Below, piece after piece: positions 181 through 283 of a stretch of 6,025 bases of DNA; the first letter of the stretch is position 1; every line of letters starts with the position of its first letter. The notes under the pieces were generated by a model. It had not been told where the DNA came from, did no database searches, and saw only the letters and a list, made by a program, of their open reading frames with translations. The position numbers and the translations under genes are program-made. The stretch is from a virus (lineage: Duplodnaviria > Heunggongvirae > Uroviricota > Caudoviricetes): positions 1 to 6,025 of the IMG/VR virus record IMGVR_UViG_2681813226_000023. The stretch is one strand, 5' to 3'.

Positions 181-241
181 TTCTATTCCTCTGTTGGATT
201 GGTGGGGGACAGTATACACAGAAAAAGCACAAATAAAACTC

Positions 242-283
242 TTGACGTGGGCCACACCTAAAGAATATAGTGGGCCACACCTT
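242..283 (+). promoter_or_regulatory. Sigma70-like promoter (TTGACG-N18-TATAGT) flanked and overlapped by two direct 13-bp operator-like repeats GTGGGCCACACCT
   Basis: TTGACG at 242..247 and TATAGT at 266..271 with 18-bp spacing; GTGGGCCACACCT at 247..259 and again at 270..282 (23-bp period, about two helical turns). Sits in the divergent region next to the RHH gene. Confidence 0.4.

Follow-up and report, generated by a model that had tools for sequence, protein, structure and literature searches.

Conserved putative operator sites beside a small divergent RHH gene at the head of a Gram-negative PICI suggest a candidate island repressor

The PICIs of Gram-positive bacteria have a master repressor, whereas a global repressor in the Gram-negative elements has been described as 'unclear' (Fillol-Salom et al., 2018; PMC6092414). 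For the prototype Gram-negative island EcCICFT073, helper-phage-dependent induction, replication and packaging have been shown experimentally; AlpA is an activator that is expressed in response to helper phages, suffices for induction and was the only regulator tested (PMC6092414). Gram-negative PICIs are described in general as having unidirectional genes, with RNA-based immunity in some, and some carry C4/isrK at the position between the early promoter and icd (PMC10111431). A 2026 survey lists a 'YlcI/YnfO family protein' among the accessory genes of capsid-forming PICIs (cf-PICIs), and a 2025 preprint mentions that the gene downstream of alpA is variable and has no known function. In the literature we found no paper that gives YlcI/YnfO proteins a function or that ties RHH proteins to PICIs. 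Here we propose, from sequence comparison, that a 59-residue RHH protein of this family, encoded leftward at the head of a Gram-negative island, is the island's own sequence-specific repressor.

The window is the whole stretch of DNA analysed, 6025 nucleotides bounded on one side by the stop codon of a small leftward gene and on the other by that of a capsid gene. The small gene, of 59 codons, occupies 1-180 on the minus strand (coding sequence 180 down to 4, stop codon 3-1) and encodes the YlcI/YnfO-family protein proposed as the repressor. Reading rightward on the plus strand, we list a 67-residue Icd-like protein (380-583), which is the first gene of the operon of the rightward promoter P_R, then small open reading frames and a DUF4222 protein, a D5-type primase (D5_N, DUF5906; 1487-3235), a small terminase (TerS; 4451-4939) and the major capsid protein (5102-6025). 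The Icd-like assignment comes from NCBIfam NF033153 (65.1 bits, cutoff 25), and the gene is conserved at the protein level in divergent loci. In Gram-negative PICIs of the EcCICFT073 type, int and alpA precede primase and replication genes that run in one rightward direction. The window covers primase, DUF4222, TerS and capsid genes, and int and alpA would fall to its left; both are present in relatives with the same module, and the E. coli relatives show the same gene arrangement with an integrase and an AlpA-family gene ahead of the module. A terminator-like hairpin, AGCCGGAGCAATCCGGCT followed by a T-run (3850-3867, plus strand), lies after the open reading frame at 3523-3831 and ahead of small open reading frames and the TerS and capsid genes, and may divide an early or replication unit from a packaging unit.

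By sequence, the window is related to a proven PICI. Positions 1-400 show ∼13 differences (∼97% identity) to EcCICFT073 (NC_004431, 1380473 onward), and the operator sites O1, O2 and O3 described below, including the degenerate O3, are all identical in the two. EcCICFT073 has the same divergent pair of YlcI-like and Icd-like genes (L134 10474-10653 and 10853-11053; NC_004431 1380473-1381052), which RefSeq now labels 'YlcI/YnfO family protein' and 'Icd-like protein' under the late locus tags C_RS30120 and C_RS30125; these two genes were apparently not considered in the 2018 functional study of that island. The RHH gene with its putative operators is found in the prototype and in more than 100 related elements from about two dozen Enterobacterales genera, and a BLAST search of positions 1-1200 against 50,697 phage records gave no match. 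Three E. coli contigs (L130-L132; 9262-9801 relative to ylcI at 10001-10180) have at the head of quite different cargo a YlcI protein that shares 95% identity with that of the window. Their first gene is Phage_ASH, an AAA_25 helicase and SSB replace the primase, and the capsid and terminase genes are of other kinds (lambda E/D-like or protease-capsid fusion; Nu1-like). The presence of so similar a protein at the head of these differing satellites suggests that the regulatory module circulates among several satellite types.

The 13-mer GTGGGCCACACCT occurs as two exact copies on the plus strand, at 247-259 and 270-282, with a start-to-start distance of 23 bp and a gap of 10 bp. When the window was shuffled 3000 times with its dinucleotides preserved, 11 of the shuffles contained an exact direct repeat of at least 13 nt within 40 nt. 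The two copies are set against P_R, the top sigma-70-like match in the window, which consists of TTGACG (242-247), an 18-nt spacer and TATAGT (266-271) and agrees with the consensus at 10 of 12 positions. The first base of copy 1 (O1) is the last base of the -35 hexamer, so that O1 lies in the spacer of P_R, and the first two bases of copy 2 (O2) are the last two of the -10 hexamer, so that O2 extends from the end of the -10 over the position where transcription probably starts (∼277-279). A sequence-only reading of this DNA had pointed to such a repeat beside a near-consensus promoter. Both are real, and its contacts with the -35 and -10 hexamers hold, with the correction that the second copy had been placed one base too far to the right; the '23 bp' that it gave as the separation is right as a start-to-start distance and not as the gap. 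The two exact copies are the only ones in the window, where a search for the 13-mer with up to three mismatches showed no enrichment.

Comparison with relatives redefines the unit of the repeat. Loci fetched with an alignment of the small protein, 47 from species-representative genomes and 80 from IMG/VR contigs, gave 94 distinct regulatory regions. The functional unit in these is an 11-bp site of the form GTG-N5-CAC that recurs at three fixed positions, and all three sites are found in 85 of the 94 regions. O1 begins at the final base of a -35 hexamer in which TTGA is invariant (TTGACG in 54/94, TTGAAG in 29/94) and corresponds to 247-257 of the window (GTGGGCCACAC). O2 (core unit 270-280) follows O1 downstream at a distance of 22-25 bp in 70 regions and of 35-36 bp in 20, and is either direct or, in about one third of the elements, inverted; TATAGT or a close variant precedes it in most of the regions with a direct, close O2. 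O3, an O1-like site, is located 45 ± 1 bp upstream of O1 in 87 of the 94 regions. At this offset the window has GTGGGGGACAG (202-212), with three mismatches to O1/O2, where relatives usually have one (CAC to CAG); the same degenerate O3 is present in EcCICFT073 and in 11 of the 17 loci of the window's class. The earlier reading of the repeats as operators is thereby supported, although the unit is an 11-bp pseudo-palindrome at three sites rather than 13 bp at two.

Within the operator, positions 2-3 and 9-10 are invariant or nearly so and positions 4-8 are variable (entropy 1.3-1.9 bits). The 5-bp core falls into about two dozen classes, among them GGCCA, GCTGA, GAGTC, TCCGA, TAAGA, TTCAA, CGATT and TATTT; the window has GGCCA between GTG and CAC arms. 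An element uses one core throughout its sites, and from one element to another the core changes at all of them together. Several classes are perfect 5-1-5 palindromes, and the 5-1-5 pseudo-palindromic form of many operators, for example GTGTC-C-GACAC and GTGGA-G-TCCAC, is consistent with a dimeric binder. The spacing of O1 and O2 (22-25 or 35 bp, in either orientation) is not helically phased and therefore does not imply cooperative binding of a tetramer. Searches for further copies of the operator in the window, EcCICFT073 and the element of E. coli 2014C-3061 (L001) returned near matches at chance level only. One such match, GTGTACCACAC at 124-134 on the minus strand, differs from the operator by two mismatches and falls within the coding sequence of the RHH protein; CFT073 has it too, and near matches of this kind are as many as chance predicts. 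A scan of IMG/VR for the 14-mer GTGGGCCACACCTT hit more than 119 contigs, mostly unrelated and as many as chance predicts, and is uninformative on operators in helper phages.

The most conserved block between the two divergent genes, CAGTATAC, abuts O3, whose adjacent core varies. It includes AGTATA on the plus strand, present in 66 of the 94 regions, which reads as TATACT on the minus strand (216 down to 211) and which we take from its conservation to be the putative -10 hexamer of the small gene. No -35 can be recognised for this leftward promoter, although its -10 is conserved. O3 overlaps TATACT by two bases, exactly as O2 overlaps the TATAGT of P_R, and this overlap accounts for O3 typically ending in CAG rather than CAC. 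An O1-like site over the predicted -10 of the gene's own promoter makes autoregulation, which the earlier sequence-only reading had proposed, plausible, and the three mismatches of O3 in the window's element imply that autoregulation may be weak here. A different minus-strand promoter noticed by eye, TTGACA (reverse complement of 289-294) and TATATT (reverse complement of 264-269) separated by 19 nt, was discarded because its TTGACA derives from the stem of a leader hairpin (SL1, below) and is not conserved. A strong intrinsic terminator closes the leftward unit in relatives. A toxin-antitoxin arrangement, with an RHH antitoxin and a downstream small gene, was also rejected: the 57-residue gene that follows ylcI in CFT073 is absent from the 2014C-3061 element, where the terminator follows directly.

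The product of the leftward gene matches the NCBIfam model NF041551 (YlcI_YnfO_N) with 63.7 bits against a cutoff of 30, residues 9-50 covering the whole 42-position model, and RefSeq gives its E. coli homologues the same YlcI/YnfO name. The family is narrow, with 86 clusters at 50% identity among 1.84 billion representatives. An AlphaFold monomer model built from 43 homologues has a pLDDT of 89, and its predicted fold is RHH, a β-strand followed by two helices over ∼45 residues, in agreement with the 'RHH-like' label first given to the protein from its sequence. Foldseek and sequence searches of the PDB with the small protein found nothing; in Pfam, the window protein had no match at E ≤ 0.1 and no RHH family (Arc, RHH_1, CopG and similar) reached threshold. 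Ten of the 43 homologues gave weak, sub-threshold matches to CB_ParB_C (best E 0.0045), which we take to be an RHH domain.

A profile alignment (hhalign) to the Arc repressor of P22, whose sequence was verified against 1arq, is weak (E 0.002, probability 14%). It places residues 12, 14 and 16 of YlcI opposite Gln9, Asn11 and Arg13 of Arc, which make the base contacts when Arc is bound to its operator (PMC12645479). In the family alignment Asn7, Ser10 and Arg16 never vary, and variation is greatest at residues 12 and 14. These comparisons point, indirectly, to base recognition through alternate residues of the N-terminal β-strand; residues 1-15 are encoded by 136-180 on the minus strand. Far from this predicted DNA-reading strand, the C-terminal helix bears an invariant, strongly basic motif, E46-I-K-R-R-x-R52, in all 43 homologues. 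We speculate that it is a surface for binding a partner or for oligomerization, and as such a candidate contact for de-repression. The namesake of the family, ylcI of the DLP12 prophage in E. coli K-12 (L254 6252-6446), is found just upstream of the packaging gene nohD rather than at an immunity region; inspection by eye of the DNA upstream of it revealed no obvious GTG-N5-CAC triplet, and in lambdoid prophages the target of the family may be another one.

We used covariation to ask which protein recognises the operators. Residues 12 and 14 of YlcI carry the highest information on operator class (MI/H 0.96 and 1.0, z 14 and 19), specifically on operator positions 4-8, these values being inflated by recombination of one cassette, since the operator sites and codons 12-14 lie within ∼100 bp of each other between mosaic boundaries at ∼50 and ∼340. 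Among pairs of YlcI proteins with less than 65% identity over the remaining sequence, those with the same residues 12 and 14 share an operator in 51 of 72 cases and those with different residues in 12 of 1676. The window class combines GTGGGCCACAC with Ala12 and Lys14 (QALKAR), and the class of E. coli 2014C-3061 combines GTGGCTGACAC with Lys12 and Glu14 (KKLEAR). These two elements also display a mosaic 'immunity cassette': positions 50-340 of the window are diverged from 7050-7340 of L001, and 1-50 and the region beyond ∼340 are nearly identical. Within the diverged part are the codons for the N-terminal two thirds of the RHH protein, all three operators and the first part of the leader, with the hairpins SL1 and SL2. 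A diverged segment between near-identical flanks suggests recombinational exchange of specificity modules.

The repeats could instead be binding elements for the activator AlpA, the small RHH protein being irrelevant to them. AlpA does activate the genes of EcCICFT073 (PMC6092414), O1 sits in a promoter spacer, and the Pseudomonas AlpA, a Q-like, promoter-loaded regulator, recognises an element within a promoter (PMC9371919). Yet AlpA does not covary with the operator, which makes this explanation very unlikely: 69 of the 108 pairs of elements whose AlpA proteins are at least 85% identical differ in operator, and 177 pairs with less than 50% identity share one. Residues 12 and 14 of YlcI predict the operator class within every band of AlpA identity; in the band at or above 85%, pairs with the same two residues have the same operator in 39 of 41 cases and pairs with different residues in none of 67. 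The Icd-like proteins of the window and the 2014C-3061 element differ by one residue, yet all three operators differ. Operator class is thus predicted by residues 12 and 14 of YlcI and not by AlpA or the Icd-like protein, and the comparisons support the small RHH protein as the cognate binder. We find it scarcely credible that the sites act as RNA, through complementary segments of the divergent transcripts, or as replication iterons. O2 and O3 do lie at the predicted 5' ends of two transcripts, and the stretch between O3 and O1 is AT-rich. However, O1 is upstream of both predicted starts and is nevertheless the best-conserved copy, and the inversion of O2 in so many elements would abolish RNA complementarity. 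Against iterons, the window and the 2014C-3061 element share a primase type and differ in their operators, and the relatives with an AAA_25 replication protein encode a YlcI 95% identical to that of the window with the same residues 12 and 14, a comparison made at the level of the protein. The idea of a chance repeat, or of a recent duplication without function, could appeal to the presence of only two exact copies in the window and the lack of enrichment of mismatched ones; its probability is negligible given the rarity of such repeats in shuffled windows, and it is already refuted by the comparative sequence data, in which the architecture is kept across Enterobacterales genera and the core is replaced in concert at three sites.

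A further possibility accepts that the RHH protein binds the sites and assigns it a main role other than silencing of the island: it might activate its own weak promoter by binding O1 (at about -49), or fine-tune expression, silence being due to the absence of AlpA. The leftward promoter lacks a -35, O1 is at a constant 45 bp from O3, a position that would permit activation of the lambda CI kind, and overexpression of AlpA alone induces EcCICFT073 (PMC6092414). We nevertheless consider this role unlikely, because O1 and O2 over the spacer, -10 and start site of P_R are incompatible with the binding of polymerase and because O2 and O3 overlap the two -10 hexamers in mirror image, which points to occlusion at both promoters.

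The reading that we prefer, and hold to be probable on the sequence evidence, is that the 59-residue protein binds these sites and represses P_R. We infer the binding, the repression, the leftward promoter and the stoichiometry. RHH dimers would occupy the three 11-bp pseudo-palindromic operators GTG-N5-CAC, with Ser10 and Arg16, which do not vary, reading the likewise invariant arms, and with the element-specific 5-bp core read by the variable residues 12 and 14. O1 (247-257) would fill the spacer from the last base of the -35, and O2 (270-280), starting in the -10, would cover the start site; occupancy of both is proposed to exclude RNA polymerase from P_R. Transcription from this promoter would take in the structured leader, the icd-like and replication genes and, by a direct or indirect route, the packaging genes. 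In a mirror-image arrangement, occupancy of O3 (202-212), which overlaps the putative leftward -10 and the predicted start (∼203), would block the protein's own promoter and give negative autoregulation. The alpA gene is transcribed convergently towards the repressor gene, and one possibility for the override, which is speculative, is that rightward transcription driven by AlpA runs through the repressor gene, silencing it and entering the operon. The interpretation originally drawn from the window is supported by strong comparative evidence, its 'master switch' in the manner of Stl or CI being a putative role.

The predicted P_R transcript would begin with a hairpin, SL1 (278-298, plus strand), identified as an inverted repeat by sequence and folding (CACCTTGA-ggttg-TCAAGGTG); an SL1-like hairpin (minimum free energy ≤ -5) is present in ∼60% of 77 distinct relatives, with a mean z of -2.0. 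A conserved structured leader follows (309-371, plus strand). It consists of SL2 (310-343), in which RNAalifold finds that 8 of 11 pairs show compensatory changes, an invariant UCUAACCAC (343-351) and a short hairpin just before the icd-like start codon, SL3 (355-371). In the leader structures 91.5% of cells are paired, compared with 78% in shuffles and 28-44% when the structures are slid. No Rfam family matches the leader, in searches over the window at E ≤ 1 and over 240-620 at E ≤ 10, and the region 278-371 could be an undescribed regulatory or processing element. Two segments, CCTTGAGGTTGT (280-291) and CCGTCAGGTTGTG (524-536), are complementary to CACAACCTGAA (419-429), which is inside the icd-like coding sequence, an arrangement that recalls seqA/B/C of P4. 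A P4-like mechanism on this basis was set aside, as the middle segment is part of the conserved Icd-like coding sequence and neither the C4 nor the isrK model matches.

A small, often unannotated divergent RHH gene with its own operators offers a concrete candidate for how these islands stay silent, and it suggests a basis for 'immunity types' among satellites. If the reading is correct, the switch would be of an ordinary bacterial kind, its interest lying in its location, since it heads the prototype Gram-negative PICI and no repressor is known for that island. The two variable residues and the 5-bp core together form a compact recognition series that would be useful for studying or engineering RHH specificity. 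A broader conjecture, to which we give slightly less than an even chance, is that YlcI/YnfO RHH proteins are the missing 'master repressors' and the immunity determinants of a large group of Gram-negative PICIs that includes EcCICFT073, with at least two dozen specificity classes set largely by two β-strand residues and exchanged as cassettes, with AlpA overriding the block and with the leader as a further regulatory RNA.

Among described systems, the CI RNA of P4 and C4 of P1 share the place of the structured leader, between an early promoter and the icd-like frame that heads the replication operon. The P4 and P1 elements differ in that control there is by antisense RNA and here apparently by a protein, and the leader has a different conserved structure; the Rfam models C4, isrK and c4-a1b1 found nothing in the window (E ≤ 1) or in 240-620 (E ≤ 10), while P4 as a positive control scored 74.9, 60.8 and 44.1 bits, respectively. 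Omega of pSM19035 binds arrays of 7-bp heptads, in contrast to the 11-bp units described here, whose 3-bp arms are invariant and whose core varies, and Omega and CopG (pMV158) serve plasmid partition or copy number rather than a phage satellite.

The layout resembles that of Stl and Rpr in Gram-positive PICIs (SaPIs), in which a leftward repressor gene diverges from the main rightward operon between the int and replication sides: here the gene on the minus strand (1-180) abuts P_R at 242-271 on the plus strand. The presumed role is also alike, in that the island would be held silent until the arrival of a helper phage. Stl proteins, however, are far larger, are of the helix-turn-helix type and are de-repressed when they bind proteins of the helper phage, in contrast to the 59-residue RHH protein, and the island also has an activator, AlpA (PMC6092414). 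As in lambda-type immunity (CI/Cro at OR1-3), multiple copies of one operator are spread across divergent promoters, and recognition residues and all operators appear to be swapped as a unit between near-identical elements to give discrete immunity classes. The lambda repressors differ in being of the helix-turn-helix rather than the RHH type; moreover, no Cro-like antagonist is evident here, and one of the three sites serves the repressor's own promoter.

By analogy, the switch may be likened to Arc, and Mnt, in the immI region of P22, where Arc acts at Pant/Pmnt. Arc and Mnt differ in using one 21-bp operator bound by a dimer of dimers, compared with three separate 11-bp sites here. The sequence similarity of YlcI to Arc is marginal, and YlcI has a long basic C-terminal helix with the invariant EIKRR.R motif. 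Arc and Mnt belong to the immunity region of a phage, whereas YlcI belongs to a satellite island.
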